DNA of 20,000 bases, taken from the IMG/VR virus record IMGVR_UViG_3300025162_000048. One strand, written 5' to 3'. The position numbers and the translations under genes were made by a program. Each line of letters starts with the position of its first letter. Positions within the stretch are counted from its first letter, which is position 1. The notes under the pieces were generated by a model. The model searched no databases. It was not told the origin of the DNA and saw only the letters and a program-made list of their open reading frames with translations. This document shows positions 336 through 19,855 of this stretch, one piece after another. This stretch comes from an uncultured virus (IMG/VR IMGVR_UViG_3300025162_000048) (lineage: Duplodnaviria > Heunggongvirae > Uroviricota > Caudoviricetes).

Positions 336-1127
336 TTAATTTGGATAGATCACTTTTAATGTATTGTAGAATTCATTTGAACAGCTTTTTAATTGATCGT
401 TAAGTCCACCTTTATTCGGATCGACTGCACGCAAGCATCGTTTTATGGTATTGAAAGCTTCCCATACTTTAGCTTTGGTAGCGGCCTCGGCTGAATCTGC
501 AATATGGCGAGCAGCGGCTTCAGCCTCATTTTGAAATTGCATCAGCAATACATCATATTGTTCGAAATGAGCCGCGCAGCTCGCTTGGTCAGCCGCGATT
601 TTGCCAAACATTCCAGAGGCAGATCCCACTGCTTGAAACAGCATATTTTTGCGGATCATGGCTTCATCTAATCCGGCATATTGTGATCTTAGAGAGGCTT
701 CATTGTCGAACCAAGTTCCCATAATATCGTCAACACTCGGATGAAATGATGGCTCAACTCGACCTCTTGGCCATGCTCCCTTCCACATACCTTTCATTTG
801 ACCAATATCATTTGAACTACTCATCTTTTGAGCTTCACAGAGAAATTTATCTGAGTACCAGTATCCCCACCAAGGATCGCCATTTAAATCCTCGCGCATA
901 ACAAGTTCTTGAGGAGTTGAATCGACATTGGTAAGGTCGTAGCCAAGAGCCGCATTGTATGGGATATTTTTGTTGGTATAGACGCATTTGTAAACAGATT
1001 TATTTGGATTACTCGAAATATATCCTTTTAATGGGCGTAAGCAACTCCATGTAAATGCAGTGTCATCGGCTAAAGCCGTTGTTGATACCAGTGCCAAAGT
1101 TAATGCAAGAGATGTCCTAAAATTCAT
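336..1127 (-). CDS. Secreted hypothetical protein (Sec signal peptide), Cys-containing, helical C-terminus
   Basis: 263-aa ORF; N-terminus MNFRTSLALTLALVSTTALA-DD with AxA cleavage site; SD-like AAGGA upstream. Confidence 0.8.
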   Translation of the reverse strand: MNFRTSLALTLALVSTTALADDTAFTWSCLRPLKGYISSNPNKSVYKCVYTNKNIPYNAALGYDLTNVDSTPQELVMREDLNGDPWWGYWYSDKFLCEAQKMSSSNDIGQMKGMWKGAWPRGRVEPSFHPSVDDIMGTWFDNEASLRSQYAGLDEAMIRKNMLFQAVGSASGMFGKIAADQASCAAHFEQYDVLLMQFQNEAEAAARHIADSAEAATKAKVWEAFNTIKRCLRAVDPNKGGLNDQLKSCSNEFYNTLKVIYPN

Positions 1128-1166
1128 ATATGGTTCCTTTATGTTAATTGTTTATCCACCATGTAA

Positions 1167-2189
1167 TCACCAATCATGACATGGGGCTGTTTTAGAACTT
1201 TTATTTAAACAAGATTCAATGAGAACTAAGTTATGCCTGAAAGTATTCATATCGCCGTTATTTTTCAATAAGTCATATTGTTCAGATAGCTTTTTTTCGA
1301 GATATTTTTTCTGGATACTGCGATCTAATTGATTTACTATTTCGGGTTTATCCATCAATTCTGCGGCATTTTCCATATGATTCAAATAAGGAAGTGTGTT
1401 GGTTTTCAGTAACTGAGAATCTTTAGATGTGTGTACCGACGCCAAGGCATCTGGCAATCCTTTAGCATTGAAGCCTGCGGTTTGAAGATATAGTTTACAA
1501 ATCGCTTCAGGATGCTTATTTAAAAACGCCTGAATTTTATCCTTAGCAGTACCCTCTTCTAAATCATTAGCCAAAACCTTTAATTCATCTGTATAGTTTT
1601 TCGGGCATTCTAAAAGCATCTCGGCCTGCGTTCCGAACTCATAACTTTCAATGAAGGCATCCCCGCAGGTATCAAAGAAAGCTGGAACTTGAAGTAATGA
1701 TTGATAAGTCTGTGCATCGAACTCGCGATTGAGGAAAGAGAACTTTTGATGTCGTTGAGAGGATCGGATGAACACATAAGATTTATCAGTGCTGAGTAGC
1801 TTTTCAAAAATACTATCTATAGCGCCATCAGTGAGGACTTTTTCTTTTTTAAAGTTGCTAGAGGTCGCCAGGAGAATATTAAAGTCGGTAGGTGCGAATT
1901 TGGATAGTGCTTCTTGATTATCCAAATAGGCTGTTTCAAATTTAGGGTTAGGTGCCATTGGGTCGGCAACATAAGCGCTGTGTTTGATACATGACACTTG
2001 CTTGGGAAAATCGTAGTGAGTGTAAGGGCCAACCAGGGAGTTTACTCCAGCACCGACGAGTGGCTGATAGCGTTCGCCCATCAATTGAATGACTTCCAGA
2101 GTACCGGGTTTAGAATCAGCCTTTGGAGCATCTGTGTGTGTTCCACATGCACCCAATAACGGCACAAGCCCAATTAATAACTTTTTCAT
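1167..2189 (-). CDS. Lipoprotein with MACPF-like motifs
   Basis: ATG at 2189 after AAGGAG; lipobox LGAC; motifs VGAGVNSLVG and FFDTCGDAFIESYEFG, shared with the neighbouring gene. The fold call is inference from motif resemblance. Confidence 0.6.
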   Translation of the reverse strand: MKKLLIGLVPLLGACGTHTDAPKADSKPGTLEVIQLMGERYQPLVGAGVNSLVGPYTHYDFPKQVSCIKHSAYVADPMAPNPKFETAYLDNQEALSKFAPTDFNILLATSSNFKKEKVLTDGAIDSIFEKLLSTDKSYVFIRSSQRHQKFSFLNREFDAQTYQSLLQVPAFFDTCGDAFIESYEFGTQAEMLLECPKNYTDELKVLANDLEEGTAKDKIQAFLNKHPEAICKLYLQTAGFNAKGLPDALASVHTSKDSQLLKTNTLPYLNHMENAAELMDKPEIVNQLDRSIQKKYLEKKLSEQYDLLKNNGDMNTFRHNLVLIESCLNKSSKTAPCHDW

Positions 2190-2201
2190 ATGCAAACTCC
2201 T

Positions 2202-3377
2202 TTAAAGCCAGCCATCATCTGGATTACACGCTGAGGAAATATTGGGATGTTTGGCACAATTATAGTTAAAATCAGCTTGTTTTTGCAGGTTATATTCAAG
2301 ATCGATCTTTTTTGAAAGAAGTTTTTTGTATTCAGTTTCAGAGATTCCACTATAATCTTTTTTATATTTAGCCAAAAGCAATTCAGTGCCAGTCAATTGA
2401 TTGAACATTTCATTGAAGTTTTGTTGACCGGTAAGAACTAATTGTTTCTCTGCATTATAGTCATGTTTAATTTTCGGTAAAACTTTTTCTTTAAAATCCA
2501 AATTTTGAATCATGGTGTATGGTGTGGTGCCAACTTTCATTAGCTTGGCGCTTTCAATAGGGGCTTTTTCTACATAGTCTAAGAAAATTTGAGGTGCAGC
2601 GCTAATATTATCGCCAGCGATTGATAACGTTCCGTTGCCACCAAGATGGTAATACCAAATATGGCAAGCACCACTTACGTTTTTCTGCATTTCTTCTAAA
2701 GATTTAGTGTCCTTGACGTTAGCATGGATTGACCAACTATTTACTCCAGCTTGTATCACTTTTTCATTTTTTTCTTTATCAGTGACGCTGGTAGCTTCGC
2801 AATCAATAAGCCCATAAGCGACGATGCCTGAAATTAAAGATGAAATGAATTCATCTCCACAGCTATCGAACCAATCTTCTGGATGTTTAGAATAGATGTC
2901 GATAATTTTGGGGTCCACGTCGAAATCTGACATAGTATTGCTTGCAAAAATTCGAGAGGCTGTCATTAGTGCGTAAGAATGGGTTGATTCTAAGCGAAAC
3001 TCTGCAATATTTTTGGTTGTGCTGTTATAGGTTGCACCAATAAGATTTTTCTTAATAGAAGCGTTAATGCCAACTTCGAGAGAAAAATCTGACTCTACAA
3101 TTCTGGAAAGTTCATTTTGATCTTTAAGCCAATAGACTTCAACTGTGGAATTCGCACCGGTACCCCCTGTATATCCCATAGAAGCGCGTTTAACACAGAA
3201 TGCCATATCATAATTTGGCAAAATTCCTGTTAGGGTATTAACACCTTTCCCGATATCCAAGTTTGCTGCATCTACCGGAACAGAAATAGGCAATCCTTTT
3301 AAAGCACTAGAATTATCACCTCCACTATTGGAACAAGATACTAAAAATGCAGGTAGTGCTAAGAATAATTTTTTCAC
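2202..3377 (-). CDS. Lipoprotein with MACPF-like motifs and C-terminal coiled coil
   Basis: GTG start after GAGGTG; lipobox LVSC; motifs IGKGVNTLTG and WFDSCGDEFISSLISG resemble the MACPF N-terminal lGxGyn and core (Y/F)G(T/D)xF/Y-x6-G motifs. Confidence 0.65.
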   Translation of the reverse strand: MKKLFLALPAFLVSCSNSGGDNSSALKGLPISVPVDAANLDIGKGVNTLTGILPNYDMAFCVKRASMGYTGGTGANSTVEVYWLKDQNELSRIVESDFSLEVGINASIKKNLIGATYNSTTKNIAEFRLESTHSYALMTASRIFASNTMSDFDVDPKIIDIYSKHPEDWFDSCGDEFISSLISGIVAYGLIDCEATSVTDKEKNEKVIQAGVNSWSIHANVKDTKSLEEMQKNVSGACHIWYYHLGGNGTLSIAGDNISAAPQIFLDYVEKAPIESAKLMKVGTTPYTMIQNLDFKEKVLPKIKHDYNAEKQLVLTGQQNFNEMFNQLTGTELLLAKYKKDYSGISETEYKKLLSKKIDLEYNLQKQADFNYNCAKHPNISSACNPDDGWL

Positions 3378-4643: not shown

Positions 4644-5675
4644 TTAAAGTCCTATTACATCAAGTTTTATAGCCGCACTTTGTTGCATTTCATCGGCTTT
4701 TTTTATATAAAGTGAGGTTGTAGTGATTTTTTTATGGTTTAATAAATCTTGGATTTCCCCGATAGGAACTCCTTTTTTATGAAGCAAAGTAGCCAGAGTA
4801 GCCCTACAACTATGAGGACTAATTCTTTTTTCAATCTTAGCTTCCTTTATAAGTTTTTGAAGAAGTCTGGCAACACTACTTCTGCCAAGTTTATTTCTTT
4901 TAGAAGTGTTTTGTGCTCTGGTAAATAAGAAATCGTCTCTGCTGGCCTTCATTCGAAACTTTTCAATATATTCTTGTAGGACTTGGACAGTATGAGGATG
5001 AATAATAGGAGAATGACATTCCCCACCTTTTACCCTCATGTGCAGTCGTGTGTATTCTGGCTGGATTTCAATATCACCGATGCGAAGTTCACAAAGCTCA
5101 TCAACCCTCATTCCTACTGATAAAAGAGTTGAAATAATTGCATAATTCATTGCATTTGACCTATAGGATCTATCAGTTTGAGCCTTTTCTTCCATCTTGT
5201 TCTTCGCTAATGCCAGCACTTCTTTGACTTCATTCTCGGAGAGTGCATTGGTTTTTCCTTCTTGTTTCACTCGAGGTAATTCAACCAATCTTGCCGGGTT
5301 TTTCTGGATTAAGCCTCTCTTTAAAGCGAACTCTAGACACGAAGACAAAGCACACATTGTCCTAGCAATACTGGAATTGACTGTGTGTTTTCGATTACCT
5401 TCATGGATAAAATGACGGTTACCCAATTCTTCTCGCCAAAGTAAAATCATTTTTTCATTAACTTGGCTTATCTCGGTTATGGTGATATGCATACTTTTAA
5501 TAAATTTGAAAAACTCTCTTAAGTCCCTTGCATAATTAGTTCGAGTGTTTTCACAACGTAAACTCATCAAAAAATGAAAAACCACATCTTCAATCTGAGC
5601 CGAACAATCCTGTTTAATCCATTCCTGCCAAGACAAAGATGGTGATTGATTCAATACCTGTTCGACTAAATACAT
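4644..5675 (-). CDS. Tyrosine recombinase/integrase, XerC/XerD-like, catalytically intact
   Basis: SAM-like core-binding N-terminus (NTRTNYARDL...NPARLV); catalytic R (GMRVDEL), K (RVKGG), HxxR (PHSCRAT), H (LLNHKK) and Y (TTSLYIK). Confidence 0.95.
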   Translation of the reverse strand: MYLVEQVLNQSPSLSWQEWIKQDCSAQIEDVVFHFLMSLRCENTRTNYARDLREFFKFIKSMHITITEISQVNEKMILLWREELGNRHFIHEGNRKHTVNSSIARTMCALSSCLEFALKRGLIQKNPARLVELPRVKQEGKTNALSENEVKEVLALAKNKMEEKAQTDRSYRSNAMNYAIISTLLSVGMRVDELCELRIGDIEIQPEYTRLHMRVKGGECHSPIIHPHTVQVLQEYIEKFRMKASRDDFLFTRAQNTSKRNKLGRSSVARLLQKLIKEAKIEKRISPHSCRATLATLLHKKGVPIGEIQDLLNHKKITTTSLYIKKADEMQQSAAIKLDVIGL

Positions 5676-9586: not shown

Positions 9587-9649
9587 AGAATTTTCTCCTA
9601 TAAAAAAAGAATAAATAGACTTCAATGTTATCTGATGTTAAATAAATAC

Positions 9650-9676
9650 TCAAGCTTTTCCAGTACGGTTCGATAA
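9650..9676 (+). promoter_or_regulatory. sigma28-like promoter
   Basis: TCAA-N15-TTCGATAA, about 40 nt upstream of ATG 9718. Confidence 0.5.
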
Positions 9677-9717
9677 GTTTTTTGTAAGCAATGAGAGTTT
9701 TTTAGGAGGAAAATATC

Positions 9718-9969
9718 ATGGAAATAAAAGGCGTAATCATCAAACCAAATAAAGACACAACATCTTTTTTTATCGCTTCTGGATTTAAACTGGAACAAGT
9801 AAAAAAACTGTTAAATCAATATTCTGTAAAATTCGAGGACAAAGGAATAACCAAGCTTGTCTATGAAGAGGCTGACGAATTCGAAGGTTTCATCTCCGCG
9901 ACTCACCTTTTGGCCACCAGTACTCTCCCAATCGAATTTATCCAAGACTTATTTCTCCTCTTCCCTTGA
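9718..9969 (+). CDS. Hypothetical protein
   Basis: 83 aa; strong SD AGGAGG. Confidence 0.8.
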   Translation: MEIKGVIIKPNKDTTSFFIASGFKLEQVKKLLNQYSVKFEDKGITKLVYEEADEFEGFISATHLLATSTLPIEFIQDLFLLFP

Positions 9970-10018
9970 TTCGCACTTGATGTTATGCATTCCCTCACTT
10001 TGATGAGGAAGATTTCTA

Positions 10019-10450
10019 ATGCCAAAATTTATTGCTCCAACCGACGAAGAAGTAATCGCCTGTGCCGAAACTGGCTTATCCATGAATCAAACCTGCCGCA
10101 AACTCGGATTGACTTCCATCGGCTGGCTTACCAAATATCTCAAACAGCCAGGGAAAGAAAAACTCCACGCGAGGTTTATTCAGAATGGAAAGAAAAGACA
10201 AGAAAATTATCAACTTTGTGGATATTCACAACCCACTGAAATCTATTTTCCACACTGTTACACTCCTTTACCTGATGGATATAAAGTCATTTGGAGCGAA
10301 GTAACTGAAAAATATCTAGGAATAAATAAAGAAAAAAATATTGAAAGTCCTATTTTCAGTTCACGCTTCGCTGCTAGAAATTGGTGTTTTTTAAATGCTG
10401 GTATTGAAATTCCCAGAAGACATGCTAAGATTTATCGTGCTGGTCGTTAA
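10019..10450 (+). CDS. Putative HTH DNA-binding protein
   Basis: N-terminal GLSMNQTCRKLGLTSIGWLTKYL fits a helix-turn-helix pattern; SD GAGGA. Confidence 0.65.
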   Translation: MPKFIAPTDEEVIACAETGLSMNQTCRKLGLTSIGWLTKYLKQPGKEKLHARFIQNGKKRQENYQLCGYSQPTEIYFPHCYTPLPDGYKVIWSEVTEKYLGINKEKNIESPIFSSRFAARNWCFLNAGIEIPRRHAKIYRAGR

Positions 10451-10520
10451 GATTGGGTTATCAGGTAAATTACCCCATTCTTGCTTTTTTATCAGCAAAA
10501 TAAAAGGAAATTTTGATTTC

Positions 10521-10589
10521 ATGAAAAGCTTATTATTGCCATCATTACTCTCCAGTAGTCTACCGCCAGGATTACATCCTCCGTGTTAG
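10521..10589 (+). CDS. Leu/Pro/Ser-rich leader peptide (22 aa) of a putative attenuator
   Basis: MKSLLLPSLLSSSLPPGLHPPC*; AAGGA upstream; 7 Leu, 5 Pro, 5 Ser; its 3' part is complementary to the downstream terminator. Confidence 0.7.
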   Translation: MKSLLLPSLLSSSLPPGLHPPC

Positions 10590-10623
10590 GTATATTTTGA
10601 GTAAAGCTTAATGGCTCTTACAC

Positions 10624-10658
10624 AAACCCTGAACGGAGAAATCCTTCAGGGTTTTTTT
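10624..10658 (+). terminator. Intrinsic terminator (attenuator) immediately upstream of the tRNA cluster
   Basis: AAACCCTGAA-C-GGA-GAAA-TCC-TTCAGGGTTT hairpin with GNRA loop and a T7 tract. Confidence 0.9.
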
Positions 10659-10667
10659 ATTGTATGC

Positions 10668-10741
10668 GCAGGTGTGTCGGAACTGGAATACGAGGCAGTC
10701 TTAGAAACTGTTTTTTGGAGGTTCAAATCCTCCCACCTGTA
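10668..10741 (+). tRNA. tRNA-Leu(TAG), short variable loop, CCA not encoded
   Basis: Acceptor GCAGGTG/CACCTGT; anticodon arm GCAGT-CTTAGAA-ACTGT; T arm GGAGG-TTCAAAT-CCTCC; A73. Confidence 0.88.
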
Positions 10742-10744
10742 CAC

Positions 10745-10821
10745 GGGGAAGTAGTCAAATCGGTAGAGACAGTAGATTTAAAATCTATGTTTTGTGAGTT
10801 CAAGTCTCACCTTCCCTACCA
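10745..10821 (+). tRNA. tRNA-Leu(TAA), short variable loop
   Basis: Acceptor GGGGAAG/CTTCCCT; anticodon arm GTAGA-TTTAAAA-TCTAT; T arm GTGAG-TTCAAGT-CTCAC; ACCA end. Confidence 0.92.
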
Positions 10822-10846
10822 GTATTTTTTAGAAGAGGTTTATTCT

Positions 10847-10921
10847 CTGCGTGTAGCCAAGAGGTATGGTGTTTGATTTGGGGTCAAAAGATCGTAGGTT
10901 CGATTCCTACCACGCAGACCA
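10847..10921 (+). tRNA. tRNA-Pro(TGG)
   Basis: Acceptor CTGCGTG/CACGCAG (C1-G72, A73); anticodon arm TTTGA-TTTGGGG-TCAAA; T arm GTAGG-TTCGATT-CCTAC; ACCA end. Confidence 0.95.
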
Positions 10922-10939
10922 GTTATTTTTGTACAAGAC

Positions 10940-10968
10940 TTGACATCACTAAAAATTTAAAGTTTAAT
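10940..10968 (+). promoter_or_regulatory. Near-consensus sigma70 promoter facing antisense into ccdA
   Basis: TTGACA-N17-TTTAAT. Confidence 0.65.
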
Positions 10969-11003
10969 CAAAGTAGTCCTTGCCGAGCCCAGCCAGTCCT
11001 GAC

Positions 11004-11618
11004 CTAGACCAACAAGTAAAGACCAAATCCAATTAAGATTAAACTTGAAACTTTATGAATATACTTTAGCCATTTACCACTCTTTGGAATGACTTTCTTA
11101 AATCCTAATCCCATAACTAAAATTACACTTGAAAAGCCTAAAGCATATAAGGTCATTGTTAAAACAGATAAAATTATACTGTTCTGACTTGCTGCCATAG
11201 CTAAAACAGATCCTAACAGTGGAGTTACACAAGGGGAATAGAGAAGACTTGAAGATATTCCAAAAAGGAAAGCTGATAAATTCGAACAAATATTACCTAC
11301 CTTAAAAAAGTTATTGAGTCCTGACAAAAATGATGGTGTCCAATCAAAAAAAGAAACCACGCCAAACAGAATGAACAAGACTGACATGCCAATTCTCACT
11401 AAAGGAATACCTGATGAAAACCCTAAAACCTGTCCAATCAGCAAAGCCAGAACTCCCAAGACCGAAAGCATAAACCATTGTCCAAAAATAAAGACAATCA
11501 GCTTTGATCTGTTTTCTCTCACTCCAAAATATCCTAAAGTTACTGGTAATAATGGAAAAACACATGGACTTAATGTCGCTAACAATCCCGCTAAAAAGGC
11601 CGATCCTAGTAATATCAT
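11004..11618 (-). CDS. ccdA: CcdA/DsbD-beta family membrane thiol-disulfide electron transporter
   Basis: About six TM segments with the two conserved PC motifs (LSPCVFPLLP and YSPCVTPLLG). Confidence 0.92.
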   Translation of the reverse strand: MILLGSAFLAGLLATLSPCVFPLLPVTLGYFGVRENRSKLIVFIFGQWFMLSVLGVLALLIGQVLGFSSGIPLVRIGMSVLFILFGVVSFFDWTPSFLSGLNNFFKVGNICSNLSAFLFGISSSLLYSPCVTPLLGSVLAMAASQNSIILSVLTMTLYALGFSSVILVMGLGFKKVIPKSGKWLKYIHKVSSLILIGFGLYLLV

Positions 11619-12007
11619 TTCAAAGTCTCCAATACTTTCTCTTCATTGAATCCTGATCCGCTGTCCTTTAATTCCCAGTCAGCCTTCTTTATGAAAACCG
11701 CCCAATGAGGGACTGCATAGACTTTCACTTTTTTGGATAACGTTCTGTCGTCATCCTTTTCGATAAATGCTGGAATTTGAATGTTCTTGGATGTAATTAT
11801 ATATTTTGCTCGGTTGATATTTCTGTCCATACTTACAGTTATTACGCTAGTCTTCTTGGCAATATCTGGTAGGACATCTACCATCTTTTCCTTACATTCC
11901 GAACACCAAGAACCCCAAAAAAATACCAATAATTTATTACTGTCAATTGGTTTCACATCATTTAAGGCTATCAGATTAAAAACGGTTAAAAATGTCGGTA
12001 TTATCAT
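11615..12007 (-). CDS. TlpA/ResA-like thioredoxin-fold disulfide reductase
   Basis: FWGSWCSECK (WCxxC), VITVSMD and cis-Pro VYAVP; ATGA-coupled to ccdA. Confidence 0.88.
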   Translation of the reverse strand: MIIPTFLTVFNLIALNDVKPIDSNKLLVFFWGSWCSECKEKMVDVLPDIAKKTSVITVSMDRNINRAKYIITSKNIQIPAFIEKDDDRTLSKKVKVYAVPHWAVFIKKADWELKDSGSGFNEEKVLETLK

Positions 12008-12122
12008 ATCTTTATTCTCCTTATGGCTGTCATTTAATCATGGCATTTTATCTATAGTCATGCATTTCATTGCTGATTGATAATAGCCGATTCCTTAAAA
12101 TATGCCGGTGTTACATTTCTAA

Positions 12123-12199
12123 AGCGGGATAGAGAAGTAGTTACCTCACTGGGCTCATAACCCAGAGATCATTGGTGCAAATCCAATTCTCCGCCACCA
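12123..12199 (+). tRNA. tRNA-Met(CAT), initiator-like
   Basis: Anticodon arm CTGGG-CTCATAA-CCCAG (three G-C pairs); A1xC72 mismatch; T arm ATTGG-TGCAAAT-CCAAT; ACCA end; one extra base in the 3' acceptor strand. Confidence 0.85.
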
Positions 12200-12383
12200 A
12201 TCCAACAATAACACCACCATAATTTTCCATCCAAAAAATTAAAGCTAGACATTTGAATTATTTATACAAATTGTTTATTATTCCGGTCAGTTTAGACAAA
12301 AAAAAAGGTGACTTTCGCCACCCATATACCCTATTGGGCAACGTATCACCTTTGCAATCGCTTTGCAAGCGGAAAGGTGTTAT

Positions 12384-13364
12384 ATGACATATTCTCTTCA
12401 AGTAACCAATGGCGGTAGAAGTCTCAATGCTATTTGGGATAACGAAAATCTCGACATATATCAAAGTAGTATTCTACATTATCTAGGCGCGCAAATGGAT
12501 TTCAGAGGTGATTTTCTTGAAACACGATGGGTTTCTGTAACTACATTATGTAAAAAATGCAAGATGAAACGCACCACGGCTTTTAAAGCTATCAAATTCT
12601 TACAAGATAATAAATATATTACTAAACATCATAGATATTATGAAGGCCGACAAATCGCCAATGCCTATGCCATTACTGAAAAGATTTTTCAAGAATACGA
12701 TATTTTATTAGAAAATAAATGTTCTAAGGAAATTACAAATAAAATAAGCCGTCCGTTAGACGAACCCCAGGAGTTCCCCAAACGAATCCCCGAGGGTTCG
12801 CCAGAAGAACCCCAGGGGGCCGCGAAACGTACACAGAACTCCCTCCCTTCTTCCCTCAAAAATAATCCCTCCTTATCTCCCTCTTTTTCCGAAAAAACTG
12901 AAACAGAGGTAAAGATAATTGAACATGTCATAGAACAGCCAGAACCAATACCTCAGCCAGAGCCAATGCCAGCACCAAAGCCAGAACAACAACCCAAATC
13001 AAAGGCAGCACCAAGGATAGAACGGCAGCCAGATCATCAATCAATCATCCAAGCAAAGCCAATACCAAGCCAAGCACCTCATCGAGTGAAGCCAATGGCA
13101 AGCGCAGCGACAAAAATGACAGCGACAGCTGTTTTGAGTTTTATTTTTAAGCAGACAGAAATTGAGGAAGGAAAGCCGAGACGCTTTTTTGACCAGGCTG
13201 TAATGAGGCAAACGGCAGAAATAGCGCTGGAAAAATATGGACTCGCAGCAATCTACGCCTTCAGAGATGAAATTACAAAAAGCAAGCAGATTGGTCGTAT
13301 AGCTTTTGATGCCAATGTTTTATTCGAAGCCCTGGAGAGAATTTCAAAGGATAATCGTCATTGA
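12384..13364 (+). CDS. Phage replication initiator-like protein (N-terminal winged HTH, Pro-rich linker)
   Basis: WVSVTTLCKKCKMKRTTAFKAIKFLQDNKYIT...ANAY is an HTH_36-type pattern; internal ~22-bp repeats follow the HTH; ATG 12384 after GGAAAGG. Confidence 0.75.
   Translation: MTYSLQVTNGGRSLNAIWDNENLDIYQSSILHYLGAQMDFRGDFLETRWVSVTTLCKKCKMKRTTAFKAIKFLQDNKYITKHHRYYEGRQIANAYAITEKIFQEYDILLENKCSKEITNKISRPLDEPQEFPKRIPEGSPEEPQGAAKRTQNSLPSSLKNNPSLSPSFSEKTETEVKIIEHVIEQPEPIPQPEPMPAPKPEQQPKSKAAPRIERQPDHQSIIQAKPIPSQAPHRVKPMASAATKMTATAVLSFIFKQTEIEEGKPRRFFDQAVMRQTAEIALEKYGLAAIYAFRDEITKSKQIGRIAFDANVLFEALERISKDNRH
12758..12836 (+). repeat. Three (plus one partial) 22-23 bp imperfect direct repeats, putative iterons
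   Basis: agacgaaccccaggagttcccc / aaacgaatccccgagggttcgcc / agaagaaccccagggggccgcg / aaacgtacacag. Confidence 0.6.
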
Positions 13365-13434
13365 CAGAGAATCCATATTTCATTATCGTGAAACAAGACA
13401 ATTCATATATTGAAAATTGGAGGCTTATACATTT

Positions 13435-13602
13435 ATGCTCTTAGCAATGACTATCCTGGTTATCTGGAGTCTAATAGGTTCGTTTTTGATAGGACTTTTT
13501 AATTGGGATGATGGCGATCATGATGACCAAATCGTTGCAGCCTTACTTCCCTGTTATGTTTTCTATTGTTTTGGAAAATTTCTGGGAGAACTCTTTCAAT
13601 GA
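13435..13602 (+). CDS. Small two-TM membrane protein
   Basis: ATG after GGAGG; two hydrophobic segments separated by an acidic loop. Confidence 0.6.
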   Translation: MLLAMTILVIWSLIGSFLIGLFNWDDGDHDDQIVAALLPCYVFYCFGKFLGELFQ

Positions 13603-13835
13603 AATTTGCTCTTATCCGAAATGATGAGATTGAGGCTATTTCTGTGGGTTTTTGTAAACCATTTCCACCCAAAATTGACGAGTCTGTTTGGGTAGGTTCT
13701 TTGTCTTCCAGAGATGGATGGATTACTTCCTGCGTGATGGAATACTTGAGTGCCGATAAAATGCATTTTCGCACCATGAACAATGATTATCACTTGGTTC
13801 CTCTTGAAGAGTATTATCACCCGCTTGACTCTTAA
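13599..13835 (+). CDS. Hypothetical protein
   Basis: ATGA-coupled start (MKFALIRNDE...) after GGGAGA. Confidence 0.65.
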   Translation: MKFALIRNDEIEAISVGFCKPFPPKIDESVWVGSLSSRDGWITSCVMEYLSADKMHFRTMNNDYHLVPLEEYYHPLDS

Positions 13836-13841
13836 TCTAAA

Positions 13842-13925
13842 CGATGCGAATCTATTTGGACAACGGTCATAACTGAAAACCATTTTCGACACATGATTCA
13901 GCAGACCGTTGGATATTCTGGTCGG
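13842..13925 (+). ncRNA. Structured RNA upstream of Ro60 (candidate minimal Y RNA or autoregulatory leader)
   Basis: CAACGGTC/GACCGTTG (13861-68/13904-11), internal loop, CTGAA/TTCAG, CAT/ATG, apical loop containing TTCGAC; weaker outer pairing CGAT..GAAT/ATTC..GTCG; directly before the Ro60 SD. Confidence 0.45.
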
Positions 13926-13947
13926 ACTTATCAGGAGGTTATTATAT

Positions 13948-15537
13948 ATGACTAATATTTATACCAATTTCTTTAATCCTCAAACTATTCCTCAAACTTC
14001 TGCTCTTCCTGATAAAAATCAAGTGAAAAATAATGCTGACGGCTATGTTTTCCAGATTTCTCCTATGAGCCAATTGATGAGGTTTTTGATTTTGGGAACA
14101 TCCGGCGGAACGTACTATGTCAAAGAACGAAAACTGACTGAAGAGAATGTGGACGCTCTTGTGAAATTCATTAAAGAGGACGGCAAGACCGTAGTGCAAA
14201 CCGTTTTGGATGTATCCCGTGCAGGCCGAGCTCCAAAGAACGACCCAGCCATTTTTGTACTTGCATTAGCGGCAACCCATGGCTCACCAGAAACAAAGAA
14301 AATGGTGTACGACAATATTCACAGAGTCTGTCGTATCGGTACCCATCTATTTCACTTTTGCGAGATGGTTAACAAAATGCGCAAATGGAGCGGTGGACTT
14401 CGCCGTGGTGTTGCGGACTTTTATTTGACCAAAAACAAAGACCAACTTGCTGTCCAATTACTTAAATATCGACAACGTGATGGCTGGACACACCGTGACG
14501 TATTGCGTTTGTGTCATGCCGGAAGTAACGATCCGATGATTAACGTCATGCTGAGATATGCAGTCGGAAAGCCTATTGATATAAAGCTAACAACAGATAA
14601 TCCATTCGCAGTGATTCCCCATCCACTCATTGCCGCATTTGAAATAGTTCAGAAAATACCAAACGTAAAAGAAGCTATTCCTTTAATTAAAGAACACAAA
14701 ATGACTTGGGAAATGCTGCCAACATCCTTTCTCACCGACAAAATAACTTGGAAAACATTACTTCCAGAAATGCCTTTGACCGCTATGCTTAGAAATATTA
14801 CCAAAATGGCTAATCTGGGAATGTTCACTTCTGAATTATGCGACAACACCAAAACAGTTGTGACTAAACTGCAAAATAATGATGACATCAAAAAACAACG
14901 TGTCCATCCCTTTCAGATTTTGCTGGCATTGAAAGCTTTTGAACTTCTGCTAGGACAGCCTAAAGGAATTAAAACAGCCCTTAATGAAGCCTTTTATGCC
15001 TCTTTTGGCCATGTAAATCCTACTGGGAAGAACTTTATGGTCGGAATGGATGTCAGTGGAAGTATGCACTATGAAACTATAATGAACACCAATATCACAC
15101 CAGCTATGGCAGGAACAGCACTGGCTATGTTGCTCGTAAGGACTGAACCTTGGGTAGAAACAATGGCCTTCGCGGACAGTTTTATTAGATTTCCTCTTGG
15201 CAAAACTGACACTCTTGAAAGCGTTATGGAGAAATCAACACAGCTAGGAATGTCCAGAACAGACTGCGCTCTTCCAATACTTTATGCAATCCAGAATAAA
15301 TTACCGGTAGATGTCTTTGTGATTACGACTGATAATGAAACATATTGTGGAAGTATTCACCCGATTGAAGCATTAAAAAAGTATAGACAGATTTCTGGAA
15401 GGAATGCAAAACTCATTGTAATAGGCATGACATCTACTGGCTTTTCCATCGCCGATCCTTCAGATTCTGGCTGTTTAGATGTTTGTGGTTTTGATGCAGG
15501 TTTAGGTGATGTACTCAATGCTTTCGTGAGGGACTAA
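13948..15537 (+). CDS. rsr: Ro60/Rsr TROVE + vWA domain RNA-binding protein
   Basis: NNADGYVF, RFLILGTSGGTYY, GRAPKNDPAIF, KYRQRDGWTHRDVLRL, MPLTAMLRN; MIDAS DVSGSM, TDCALP, TDNET; C-terminal GFSIADP..LDVCGFD. ATG 13948 after AGGAGG. Confidence 0.97.
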   Translation: MTNIYTNFFNPQTIPQTSALPDKNQVKNNADGYVFQISPMSQLMRFLILGTSGGTYYVKERKLTEENVDALVKFIKEDGKTVVQTVLDVSRAGRAPKNDPAIFVLALAATHGSPETKKMVYDNIHRVCRIGTHLFHFCEMVNKMRKWSGGLRRGVADFYLTKNKDQLAVQLLKYRQRDGWTHRDVLRLCHAGSNDPMINVMLRYAVGKPIDIKLTTDNPFAVIPHPLIAAFEIVQKIPNVKEAIPLIKEHKMTWEMLPTSFLTDKITWKTLLPEMPLTAMLRNITKMANLGMFTSELCDNTKTVVTKLQNNDDIKKQRVHPFQILLALKAFELLLGQPKGIKTALNEAFYASFGHVNPTGKNFMVGMDVSGSMHYETIMNTNITPAMAGTALAMLLVRTEPWVETMAFADSFIRFPLGKTDTLESVMEKSTQLGMSRTDCALPILYAIQNKLPVDVFVITTDNETYCGSIHPIEALKKYRQISGRNAKLIVIGMTSTGFSIADPSDSGCLDVCGFDAGLGDVLNAFVRD

Positions 15538-15542
15538 TAAGA

Positions 15543-15674
15543 TTACCTCTCCTTGCCTCCTTGGTATTCTTCCAGGATCTTGAGACATTCATTGCAATAA
15601 TTCTCATTCCTTTCCAGAATTACTCCACAAATACAACACCAATACTTAGGTTCTGACTGTTCTTGCTCAACCAT
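15543..15674 (-). CDS. 43-aa zinc-ribbon peptide (not in the ORF track)
   Basis: MVEQEQSEPKYWCCICGVILERNENYCNECLKILEEYQGGKER*; CxxC...CxxC; starts 3 nt after the stop of the upstream gene. Confidence 0.65.
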   Translation of the reverse strand: MVEQEQSEPKYWCCICGVILERNENYCNECLKILEEYQGGKER

Positions 15675-15677
15675 ATA

Positions 15678-16025
15678 TCACCATCCAAGTGAACCATTCA
15701 TCATTATAAAAGGGCCTTCAATTTCTTTGATTTCTGGATGTTTAGATTTAAATAGTTCAATGGTTTCTTCCTTGAATTCCTTTAAAGTCTGCTCATCTTT
15801 CATCTGAAGAATACCCCTTACAGCACACATCTTATAACCATGATCATAATTATAATGGAAATGTTCGTCTTCAAAATAACAGCCTTTCTCAACACTAAAT
15901 AAAATCCCAATACCGCAAGTCACATCCGACATTTCATTCTCGCCAATCGTTTTGTTATTGCGGTCATAATGCACAATAAAACTGCTACTGCTGCTATTGG
16001 AAACGAATCCTTTACGGATTTTCAT
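15678..16025 (-). CDS. Phage protein of the MKIRxGFVSNSSSSSF N-terminal motif family
   Basis: Real start ATG 16025 after AAGGGAG gives MKIRKGFVSNSSSSSFIV, a motif common in large-phage orphan proteins. Confidence 0.85.
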   Translation of the reverse strand: MKIRKGFVSNSSSSSFIVHYDRNNKTIGENEMSDVTCGIGILFSVEKGCYFEDEHFHYNYDHGYKMCAVRGILQMKDEQTLKEFKEETIELFKSKHPEIKEIEGPFIMMNGSLGW

Positions 16026-16068
16026 GCTTTTCTCCCTTATGTTAAAATCAATTATTGCGAGGACGATT

Positions 16069-16371
16069 ATGGCTATTACTTTTATGGACCACTTAAAAGA
16101 AGGTGTCATTTACCGAAAAATGAAGCACCCCTTCTCTGCCAGTGACGTTTATATGTATTTTGGAGCACAAGGTTACATAAATCAAGCTGGCCGACCACTC
16201 GAACAAGACGAAATTGATGGCAAGCTTAAACGTGCAGTCACTGAAGGAAAGTTATTCAAACTAGGGGCTTTTCCTCTGTTCTTCTTTCCAGATATTCAAA
16301 TTCCAAACCAAACCTATTTGTTTAACATTATTAGACAGATGAGACTAAGCTTAAGAAAAAAAGCCCTGTAA
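16069..16371 (+). CDS. Hypothetical protein, possible winged-helix fold
   Basis: Start MAITF after GAGGA; pattern PFSASDV...EIDGKLKRAVTEGKLFK; followed by hairpin AAGCC-C-TGTA/TACA-A-GGCTT. Confidence 0.65.
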   Translation: MAITFMDHLKEGVIYRKMKHPFSASDVYMYFGAQGYINQAGRPLEQDEIDGKLKRAVTEGKLFKLGAFPLFFFPDIQIPNQTYLFNIIRQMRLSLRKKAL

Positions 16372-16509
16372 AATACAAGGCTTCTAAAAAAACAGAGATG
16401 TAATTAATGGCAGCATAGAAAACTTTTTTTCTATTGCGAAACAACTATATTTAAGCTAATCATGCCTTATGGCCGAAGTCAACCTACTTCTCTCATGAGG
16501 CACAACCCT

Positions 16510-18854: not shown

Positions 18855-19019
18855 ATGAAAGAAAGCGAAGTTTTAACCAGCGCAGCCTCTATTGTTGAAT
18901 CTCTAGCAAAAGTGAACGATAATAATATAGATTTTCAAGGAGTAGCTAAATTTTTATTCAATCTCGCCAAAGTTTATAAGGAAGTAAAAGAGTGTCAGTC
19001 CAATTCTATAGTCTCATAA
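18855..19019 (+). CDS. 54-aa hypothetical protein (not in the ORF track)
   Basis: AAGGAG-N7-ATG; MKESEVLTSAASIVESLAKVNDNNIDFQGVAKFLFNLAKVYKEVKECQSNSIVS*; overlaps the start of the next gene. Confidence 0.7.
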   Translation: MKESEVLTSAASIVESLAKVNDNNIDFQGVAKFLFNLAKVYKEVKECQSNSIVS

Positions 19020-19855
19020 AAGAATTCTTCGATGGATTACTACCCGATACCCGTAATGCATACCGACGCAATATTAAAAGATTTCTGGATTTCTCTAAAG
19101 TAAATGAATTCGACCAAATCACTGTGCCTGCATTACTTGCCTTTAGGGAAGAGTTATTAAGAGTCAATACCAAATACAGCACAATCAATCATTGTTTTTG
19201 TTCGATTTCTTCATTACTGGAATTCGCAAAAAGAAAAAAAATCATCTCTGAAAACCCTGCATTAAAAGTTCCTCGGCCAACCTTTAAACGCCAGCCAAAA
19301 CTGCAAACAAAAACTTTGAGCTATCAGGAATGCCAGAAAATATTAGAAGCCGCCAAACCAATTCTTCGCGAATATGCAATTATTTTTGTTCTGTTGAATA
19401 CCGGAATGGAAGCTGAAGAAATGATGAATTTAAGAATCCGAGACTTGGAAATTACAGATGAGTATGCGCAACTCCATCTAAGATCAACTCGTAGGAAAAT
19501 CACTCACCGTACTATTATTATCAATATGGACACAGCAAATGTCATTATGGACTATTTAGTCACAGACCGCTTAAAAAAAGATAGTTGCACTGATGATAAT
19601 TGCTGGATGTTCGGCGCAAAGAAAAAACTTAACCCCTTCGCACTCTATTTTATCGTCAGACGTAATGCCAATAAAGCAGGACTTAATCCCAAAATTACTC
19701 CATACAGTCTCAGAATGACCGTCGCTAAATTGCTGGCTAAAGAAAAAAACGTTAGGAAAGCGGAAATCAAAGAACTCATCAACATAAAAGACGCTCTAAT
19801 CCTTCAAAAACGGATCGCACGCTCACCAACCCGAAAGCTAAACTTCCTTAAATAA
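18992..19855 (+). CDS. Tyrosine-recombinase-fold protein with degenerate active site
   Basis: Core-binding domain (DTRNAYRRNIKRF...ENPALKV) and catalytic-domain scaffold, but GMEAEE (R->E), PYSLR (H->Y), ELINIK (H->I) and no C-terminal Tyr. Confidence 0.85.
   Translation: MSVQFYSLIKEFFDGLLPDTRNAYRRNIKRFLDFSKVNEFDQITVPALLAFREELLRVNTKYSTINHCFCSISSLLEFAKRKKIISENPALKVPRPTFKRQPKLQTKTLSYQECQKILEAAKPILREYAIIFVLLNTGMEAEEMMNLRIRDLEITDEYAQLHLRSTRRKITHRTIIINMDTANVIMDYLVTDRLKKDSCTDDNCWMFGAKKKLNPFALYFIVRRNANKAGLNPKITPYSLRMTVAKLLAKEKNVRKAEIKELINIKDALILQKRIARSPTRKLNFLK

Follow-up and report, generated by a model that had tools for sequence, protein, structure and literature searches.

A candidate ribosome-sensed attenuator before a Leu-Leu-Pro tRNA operon in a freshwater mobile element, and similar leader modules at viral tRNA blocks

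The 20,000-nt stretch of DNA analyzed here (hereafter, the window) belongs to an uncultured virus of the class Caudoviricetes (IMG/VR record IMGVR_UViG_3300025162_000048) and carries, at around positions 10500 to 10921, a short leader open reading frame (ORF), a strong terminator hairpin, and three tRNA genes in close succession, all on the + strand. Our modeling suggests, with a probability that we put at about 0.5, that this segment is a ribosome-sensed attenuator gating a Leu-Leu-Pro tRNA operon and that the composition of its leader biases it to sense those same tRNAs in a feedback arrangement. Leader-peptide attenuation is textbook material for amino acid biosynthesis and for a few synthetase or resistance genes. 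As far as our literature searches reach, the class of mechanism is known, and its application to tRNA genes, with a leader that matches the product, is unpublished.

The leader ORF (10521 to 10589) runs for 22 codons from ATG 10521 to TAG (10587 to 10589), with the limits and translation that an earlier sequence-only reading had assigned to it. Its product, MKSLLLPSLLSSSLPPGLHPPC, comprises 7 Leu, 5 Pro, and 5 Ser residues and contains the motifs P-P-G and H-P-P. Leu and Pro together account for 12 of 21 codons, more than the composition of the 23 genes in the window would predict (P = 5.7e-6), and this share is reached by none of the 141 other ATG frames of 15 to 40 codons in the window (mean, 0.16; maximum, 0.50). 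A Shine-Dalgarno (SD)-like AAGGAA (10504 to 10509; AAGGA at 10504 to 10508) places its GGA 12 nt before the ATG. One correction to the earlier description is that the leader ORF forms the 3' part of a 64-codon open frame starting at 10395. Despite its terminal Cys, the frame was rejected as a decayed lipoprotein signal peptide, for it lacks a lipobox and no frame continues beyond the stop.

Downstream of the leader, folding bore out the predicted strong intrinsic terminator (10624 to 10658). Its hairpin (10624 to 10654) has 10 + 3 bp around the core CCCTGAA/TTCAGGG, runs into seven U residues (10652 to 10658), and is predicted at -17.3 kcal/mol, while the surrounding segment 10590 to 10667 folds at -25.5 kcal/mol (z = -5.2; none of 200 shuffles as good). 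A simple terminator scan had missed this hairpin because its loop and bulge fall outside the scan's rule. The 5' strand of a competing antiterminator (10568 to 10590) spans the last seven leader codons and the stop and forms 17 pairs, one of them G-U, with a 3' strand at 10628 to 10645; this 3' strand coincides with the terminator's own 5' arm, inner stem, and loop. The three helices originally proposed for this antiterminator turned out to be the minimum-energy fold of 10560 to 10650, arranged around a middle hairpin (10601 to 10621; -5.9 kcal/mol) that caps this conformer, and the model indicates that the mutual exclusivity of terminator and antiterminator is real. The duplex between the leader (10521 to 10600) and the 5' half of the terminator (10624 to 10645) has a computed energy of -18.6 kcal/mol, compared with -9.8 ± 2.3 kcal/mol for dinucleotide-shuffled upstream sequence; only 3 of 1,000 shuffles and 0.65% of 1,992 natural 80-nt windows reach it.

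A third structure, absent from the earlier description, completes the series. The protector hairpin ("1:2"; 10546 to 10604; -13.6 kcal/mol) holds the 5' strand of the antiterminator, and when the nascent RNA was folded with its 3' end at 10585 to 10635, the protector was the minimum-energy fold. With 3' ends at 10640 to 10650, the antiterminator took its place (-24.3 kcal/mol for 10566 to 10647), and with 3' ends from 10655 onward, protector and terminator (-17.3 kcal/mol) were found together.

Moving a 27-nt ribosome footprint codon by codon along the leader divided it into zones. The protector paired with a probability of about 0.8 in the absence of a ribosome and with codons 2 to 5 in the A site. 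With codons 6 to 17 in the A site, the protector was lost (probability at most 0.39, and at most 0.21 from codon 9) and the antiterminator became available (at least 0.5); from A-site codon 18 through the stop, the antiterminator was blocked (at most 0.26, and 0 from codon 20). This modeled succession of a read-through zone and a termination zone, served by protector, antiterminator, and terminator, agrees with the logic of trp-, leu-, and his-type attenuators that the sequence-only reading had invoked. The codons of the predicted read-through zone, P-P-G included, comprise 4 for Leu, 3 for Pro, 4 for Ser, and 1 for Gly. The accompanying claim that stalling on Leu and Pro codons frees the antiterminator was therefore only partly sustained: under masking it applies to A-site codons 6 to 17, and it fails at codons 18, 20, and 21.

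The three tRNA genes downstream were identified as predicted by both ARAGORN and Rfam. They are tRNA-Leu(UAG) (10668 to 10742; 75 nt, short variable loop, no encoded CCA, 56 bits), tRNA-Leu(UAA) (10745 to 10821; 77 nt, short variable loop, CCA encoded, 63.9 bits), and tRNA-Pro(UGG) (10847 to 10921; 75 nt, CCA encoded, followed by a T run, 65.4 bits). Nine bases, rather than the 10 nt first counted, separate the U run of the terminator from the first tRNA. Bacterial tRNA-Leu normally carry a long variable arm; both tRNA-Leu in the window instead have a 5-nt variable loop and a 3-bp D stem. The same short tRNA-Leu type is also found in unrelated phage tRNA arrays (L001 to L007).

By a consensus scan, the + strand is free of promoter-like sites from 10431 up to 11777, where the next one lies, and so no start site for the tRNAs is predicted downstream of the terminator. 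The best candidate between terminator and tRNA, a poor TATTGT at 10658 to 10663, has no -35 element and would place the start inside the tRNA; it was discarded. The lack of a promoter-like site, together with a gap of only 9 nt, suggests that the tRNAs would depend on polymerases that pass the terminator. Upstream, an operon (9718 to 10450, starting near 9700) ends 174 nt before the terminator hairpin, and its last gene ends at 10450 without a terminator of its own before that hairpin. Inside the end of this gene lies a promoter-like site (10404 to 10431, + strand; TTGAAA, 16 nt, TG-TAAGAT; 9 of 12 consensus matches) that could possibly be the start of the leader transcript; since the region contains no more such sites than shuffled sequence does, the match is weak evidence.

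From these parts, whose mutual exclusivity and geometry emerge in silico from the sequence, we infer leader translation, the efficiency of termination, the kinetic order of folding, and the physiological trigger as follows. Transcription would come in from upstream, begun either with the operon near 9700 or at the promoter-like site (10404 to 10431). A ribosome translating smoothly to the last codons or the stop would cover 10568 to 10600 and prevent the antiterminator, so that the terminator would fold and no tRNAs would be made. A ribosome stalled with codons 6 to 17 in the A site would melt the protector and leave 10568 to 10590 free to pair with 10628 to 10645; the antiterminator would then block the terminator, and RNA polymerase would continue into tRNA-Leu(UAG), tRNA-Leu(UAA), and tRNA-Pro(UGG). 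If no ribosome were present, the protector would form first and most likely pass the decision to the terminator. Because Leu and Pro dominate the leader, the switch should be most sensitive when precisely its own tRNAs run short, a response that would amount to negative feedback on tRNA supply.

Viral contigs provided a broader view of this arrangement. A search with the terminator stem of the window (CCCTGAA, 8 to 14 nt, and TTCAGGG, plus T6) returned 111 loci in viral contigs, 40 of which have a tRNA block on the same strand within 120 nt, beginning 7 to 63 nt away (93 nt at one locus) with a tRNA for Gln, Pro, Thr, or Glu. After two loci with less than 250 nt of upstream sequence were dropped, the remaining 109 were dereplicated to 55 groups, 13 tRNA-linked and 42 not. 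An ATG frame of 15 to 60 codons ending 10 to 50 nt before the stem precedes 11 of the 13 tRNA-linked groups and 8 of the 42 others (Fisher P = 3.4e-5). Likewise, the strongest pairing available to the 5' arm in the 92 nt upstream has a mean energy of -9.8 kcal/mol in the former and -5.0 kcal/mol in the latter (Mann-Whitney P = 7.7e-7), and an upstream copy of the terminator 3' arm is present in 7 of 13 compared with 3 of 42. The sequence-only reading had suggested, as a check, a search of related phage tRNA arrays for a short upstream ORF plus terminator; among the viral loci retrieved with the stem, this layout is tied to tRNA blocks. The distance from leader stop to stem is 23 to 38 nt in the tRNA-linked viral loci and 37 nt in the window, which shares the layout in its other respects as well (first tRNA at +9 nt; complement of -18.6 kcal/mol over 22 nt), with the restriction that its frame fits the definition of 15 to 60 codons ending 10 to 50 nt before the stem only from the internal ATG 10521.

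Two further observations were made among these loci. In L034, L056, L058, and L065, a tRNA with anticodon CUA (called "Pyl" by ARAGORN and resembling an amber suppressor) lies just upstream of the leader-ORF/terminator module, at about 299 to 373. A terminator with the loop GCTGATGAAGTC is strongly conserved, down to identical flanks, at L012 and about 35 loci like it; no tRNAs follow it in these viral contigs, and it looks like an element that one phage family has conserved.

The amino acids of the viral leaders also tend to correspond to the tRNAs that follow. About 4 kb of downstream sequence was fetched for 15 loci and the tRNA blocks were listed (L131 has no leader); one representative of each leader type was retained (L119, L121, L123, L129 or L125, and L126), and near relatives (L120, L122, L124, L127, L128, L130, L132, and L133) were omitted from the permutations. 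The match was scored as the share of leader residues that have a tRNA in the block, expressed as a z value relative to generic composition. For the five phage leaders and their own blocks, the true pairing was the best of all 120 permutations when blocks were defined by gaps of 300, 600, or 5,000 nt. Under the strictest definition (150 nt), 3 of 120 permutations reached the true pairing, or 6 of 120 with L125 in place of L129. When the window was added, the true pairing was the best of 720 permutations, with 3 of 720 reaching it at the 150-nt gap. Taken singly at the 300-nt gap, leaders were enriched with 27 of 35 (P = 4e-5), 21 of 30 (P = 5e-7), 14 of 28 (P = 5e-3), and 20 of 34 (P = 0.02) residues matched. 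Most matched residues are encoded by codons that anticodons of the block can read under strict wobble (25/27, 10/12, 17/20, 13/14, and 18/21), a count that does not factor in phage codon usage. Related phage leaders differ at 33 first, 34 second, and 55 third codon positions, with 30 synonymous and 51 nonsynonymous codon changes, and the third-position excess fits translation under weak constraint. Overall, a specific link between the leader-ORF/terminator layout and tRNA blocks in viral contigs, with leader amino acids that match the block, is supported by these sequence comparisons.

Searches for relatives of the window leader itself found none. The 10000-to-11000 segment had no blastn match in phages or plasmids, and no related locus was found in viral contigs by way of the neighboring 143-aa, DsbD-like, or Rep-like proteins or in genome contigs by way of the Ro60 protein. 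Patterns built on the tRNAs retrieved from viral, metagenome, and genome contigs only the unrelated phage arrays L001 to L007; a terminator directly before the first tRNA was not seen in L002, L004, and L006, so the layout is not universal. The leader is identical, with no variant, in contigs from four sequencing runs, and the 143-aa upstream protein forms a single cluster of 99% identity among 5.8 billion proteins. In Rfam, only the tRNAs reach a gathering score; the leader region matches neither Leu_leader, Thr_leader, nor His_leader, yields only subthreshold small-RNA-like matches at E <= 5, and lacks any T-box match, which led us to reject a T-box or known leader family.

Several results weigh against the attenuator reading. 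As no relative of the leader was found, neither conservation nor covariation speaks for it. The sequence-only reading had stressed that 10 of the 12 Leu and Pro codons are read by the three downstream anticodons, but that set already covers 65% of all Leu and Pro codons of the 23 window genes (P = 0.15), and synonymous choice in the leader is the ordinary codon usage of the element. Ser, which has five codons and no tRNA downstream, occurs in the sensitive zone as often as Leu or Pro, and a stall at codons 18, 20, and 21 (Leu, Pro, and Pro), which lie in the termination zone, would block the antiterminator. The SD-like site is weaker and farther from the start than the GGAG or GGAGG of most window genes. 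By a looser, model-free measure, the 5' arm of the terminator core is paired upstream before its 3' arm exists with a probability of 0.81, compared with a shuffled mean of 0.40 ± 0.22; this is only moderately unusual, as 16 of 400 shuffles and 19 of 412 natural segments score as high. At equilibrium, the full-length RNA adopts the terminator with a probability of at least 0.96 at any ribosome position, so the switch would depend on the assumed kinetic folding order; complete attenuator RNAs usually prefer the terminator at equilibrium. Nascent RNA without a ribosome, in turn, favors the antiterminator at equilibrium (probability of about 0.7), and folding therefore does not support the notion that absence of translation means a stop.

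The viral comparison contributes its own difficulties. Two of the five leader types are not enriched for residues of their own block at the 300-nt gap (12 of 31, P = 0.35; 3 of 35, P = 0.81). By the narrow 9-nt measure applied to the viral loci, the window scores -6.6, nearer to the controls, since the terminator loop is the partner of much of its antiterminator. Between the window and the viral loci, blastn aligned only the terminator stem, which was the search key, and parts of tRNA-Pro. The 13 viral groups may all come from one broad phage lineage. The phages of these groups are without SD sites and have TAnnTTTG-like motifs, of the type known as the Bacteroidota -7 promoter element, and in several groups (L019, L033, L051, and L022 with its relatives) such a motif lies between the terminator and the first tRNA. 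If these motifs are promoters, those tRNA blocks receive a second, unattenuated input. A matching leader was also sought before the Leu(UAA)-Arg-Leu(UAG) block of phage contigs; none was found, and a protein gene and a promoter-like motif precede the block instead. TAnnTTTG-like motifs likewise occur before the Leu/Arg block in L125 to L129.

Of the alternatives, the one that survives best, unlikely as we consider it, is that the hairpin is the ordinary 3' end of the upstream operon (9718 to 10450), with a chance ORF in pyrimidine-rich sequence and tRNAs that are expressed by leaky read-through or from an unrecognized promoter. The upstream gene has no other terminator, the SD-like site is weak, and the frame is merely the tail of a longer open frame; chance frames rich in Leu, Ser, and Pro do occur (a Leu-plus-Pro share of up to 0.50 among the 141 frames), in silico, terminator arms are often sequestered by sequence upstream (mean, 0.40), and no leader relatives were found that would show conservation. 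Against this, the hairpin stands 174 nt after the stop codon, and the gap is filled by an unusually structured stretch whose antiterminator energy only 3 of 1,000 shuffles reach. That a frame should end inside the antiterminator, have this composition, and precede just these tRNAs is jointly improbable under this explanation, though these features were picked post hoc, and the same layout is tied to tRNA blocks elsewhere, in viral contigs.

An improbable second explanation, to which we give less weight, is a general translation-stress sensor that any slowing of ribosomes would open (antibiotics, EF-P shortage at P-P-G, starvation, or ribosome damage), in which case the Leu/Pro bias would be meaningless. 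The Ser and Gly codons of the read-through zone, the ordinary synonymous choice (P = 0.15), and the presence of P-P-G and H-P-P, which are classic slow motifs, are all in keeping with such a sensor. In the whiB7 leader of mycobacteria, a new di-prolyl motif led to constitutive read-through (PMC10274678). However, the extreme Leu-plus-Pro share, unmatched in 141 background frames, coincides with a Leu-Leu-Pro operon, and phage leaders match their own blocks better than other blocks, both of which speak against such a sensor.

The least probable explanation, that 10566 to 10658 is a small RNA or RNase processing site with its own terminator or is served by a protein antiterminator such as the helix-turn-helix (HTH)-like 143-aa product (Q-dependent late transcripts of lambdoid phages carry tRNA genes), can point to the very stable fold of the region, to a weak, subthreshold resemblance to SdsR_RyeB (23.7 bits against a cutoff of 38; E = 0.75), and to a neighboring protein without a known family, but no Rfam family reaches threshold, nothing ties that protein to antitermination, and the frame, its composition, and the phage analogues are left unexplained.

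With 38% G+C, two tyrosine recombinases (4644 to 5675, - strand; 18992 to 19855, + strand), a replication-initiator-like protein (12363 to 13364), a Ro60/TROVE protein with a vWA domain (13909 to 15537), a DsbD-like/thioredoxin-like pair (11004 to 12007), and many orphan genes, the window appears to be a segment of a plasmid- or phage-like mobile element found in freshwater metagenomes. Its genes have clear SD sites, mostly GGAG or GGAGG about 5 to 10 nt from the start. The stretch is present in eight DNA sequencing runs from three freshwater studies, and no RNA run on record contains it. The HTH-like 143-aa product (10019 to 10450) is encoded by the last gene upstream of the leader and has no match to a known family. 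The best phage and plasmid relatives of the Ro60/TROVE protein are only 37 to 40% identical, and no Y RNA was found by Rfam at E <= 5 within 9600 to 16500. Three consecutive lipoprotein-like ORFs of 263, 342, and 391 aa (336 to 3377, - strand) belong to no Pfam or PHROG family.

Some variation between runs was seen downstream of the tRNA operon. In the contig of one other run, 12082 to 12115, just upstream of a tRNA-Met(CAU) gene (12124 to 12195), is swapped for 64 different letters; a second run has a loose end in the same region, and a third has CCAGT inserted behind 10992. The tRNA-Met(CAU) has two mismatches at the base of the acceptor stem and scores 48 bits in Rfam, and its core is common to many unrelated contigs.

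Known leader-peptide attenuators include leuL, trpL, hisL, pheL, and thrL of enterobacterial amino acid operons and pheM of pheST. The window resembles these in silico in its short leader with cognate codons, its series of protector, antiterminator, and terminator, the position of the stop at the antiterminator strand, and the predicted coupling of stalling to read-through. Unlike them, it would regulate tRNAs rather than biosynthetic enzymes or a synthetase, it lies on a mobile element rather than in a chromosomal operon, and it shows no sequence or Rfam match to them, its leader being dominated by three amino acids (Leu, Pro, and Ser). Since the regulated genes would be the tRNAs themselves, the product would directly relieve the stall. 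In mgtL/mgtP, which precede Mg2+ transporter genes of Salmonella, transcription of the downstream genes is governed, via alternative stem-loops and in EF-P-dependent coupling, by the Pro codons and PP motifs of a leader ORF; target genes and termination modes differ from those of the window, and no tRNAs are produced under mgtL/mgtP control. T-box riboswitches, which regulate synthetase or amino acid genes, work without a ribosome by binding uncharged tRNA directly; what they share with the proposed switch is a decision between terminator and antiterminator that is driven by the state of a specific tRNA.

The best-documented comparator of the window leader is the whiB7 attenuator of mycobacteria, which combines an upstream ORF with a Rho-independent terminator and an antiterminator such that efficient translation terminates and stalling reads through (PMC10274678). 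Which starvations it senses is set by the composition of that upstream ORF, and read-through rises with a di-prolyl motif (PMC10274678). The whiB7 leader is Ala-rich and controls a transcription factor, whereas the window targets tRNA genes with a Leu/Pro bias, and there is no homology between the two. Closest in layout are the viral leader/terminator modules (L008 to L133), which share with the window the stem, a short ATG frame, a complement of the 5' arm, tRNAs immediately downstream, and a leader composition that tracks the block; they differ in their longer leaders of 27 to 43 codons with more diverse composition, their larger arrays, and their phages' lack of SD sites. The earlier statement that no codon-matched attenuation of tRNA genes had been described stands, in that our full-text literature searches found no published case of leader-peptide attenuation of tRNA genes.

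Taken together with the viral modules, the window may represent, at somewhat less than even odds, an undescribed class of phage and mobile-element tRNA operons that regulate themselves by a leader peptide written in the codons of their own tRNAs, of which the window would be the minimal and clearest example. The agreement seen here between leader composition and the tRNA block that follows, in several leader types, would be the signature of such a class. An element of this kind would top up tRNAs when decoding fails, for example, upon attack by an anticodon nuclease or under a mismatch in codon usage, and would switch off once supply is restored. That short leaders are tied to tRNA blocks, with composition that follows the block, suggests that the principle is widespread in aquatic phages. 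If the attenuator reading is true, mobile elements meter their tRNA output by reading the decoding capacity of the cell codon by codon, and the element would be a compact natural sensor of the availability of specific tRNAs. It would also make the role of phage and plasmid tRNAs, whether in codon compensation or in replacing cleaved host tRNAs, directly testable with a simple reporter.

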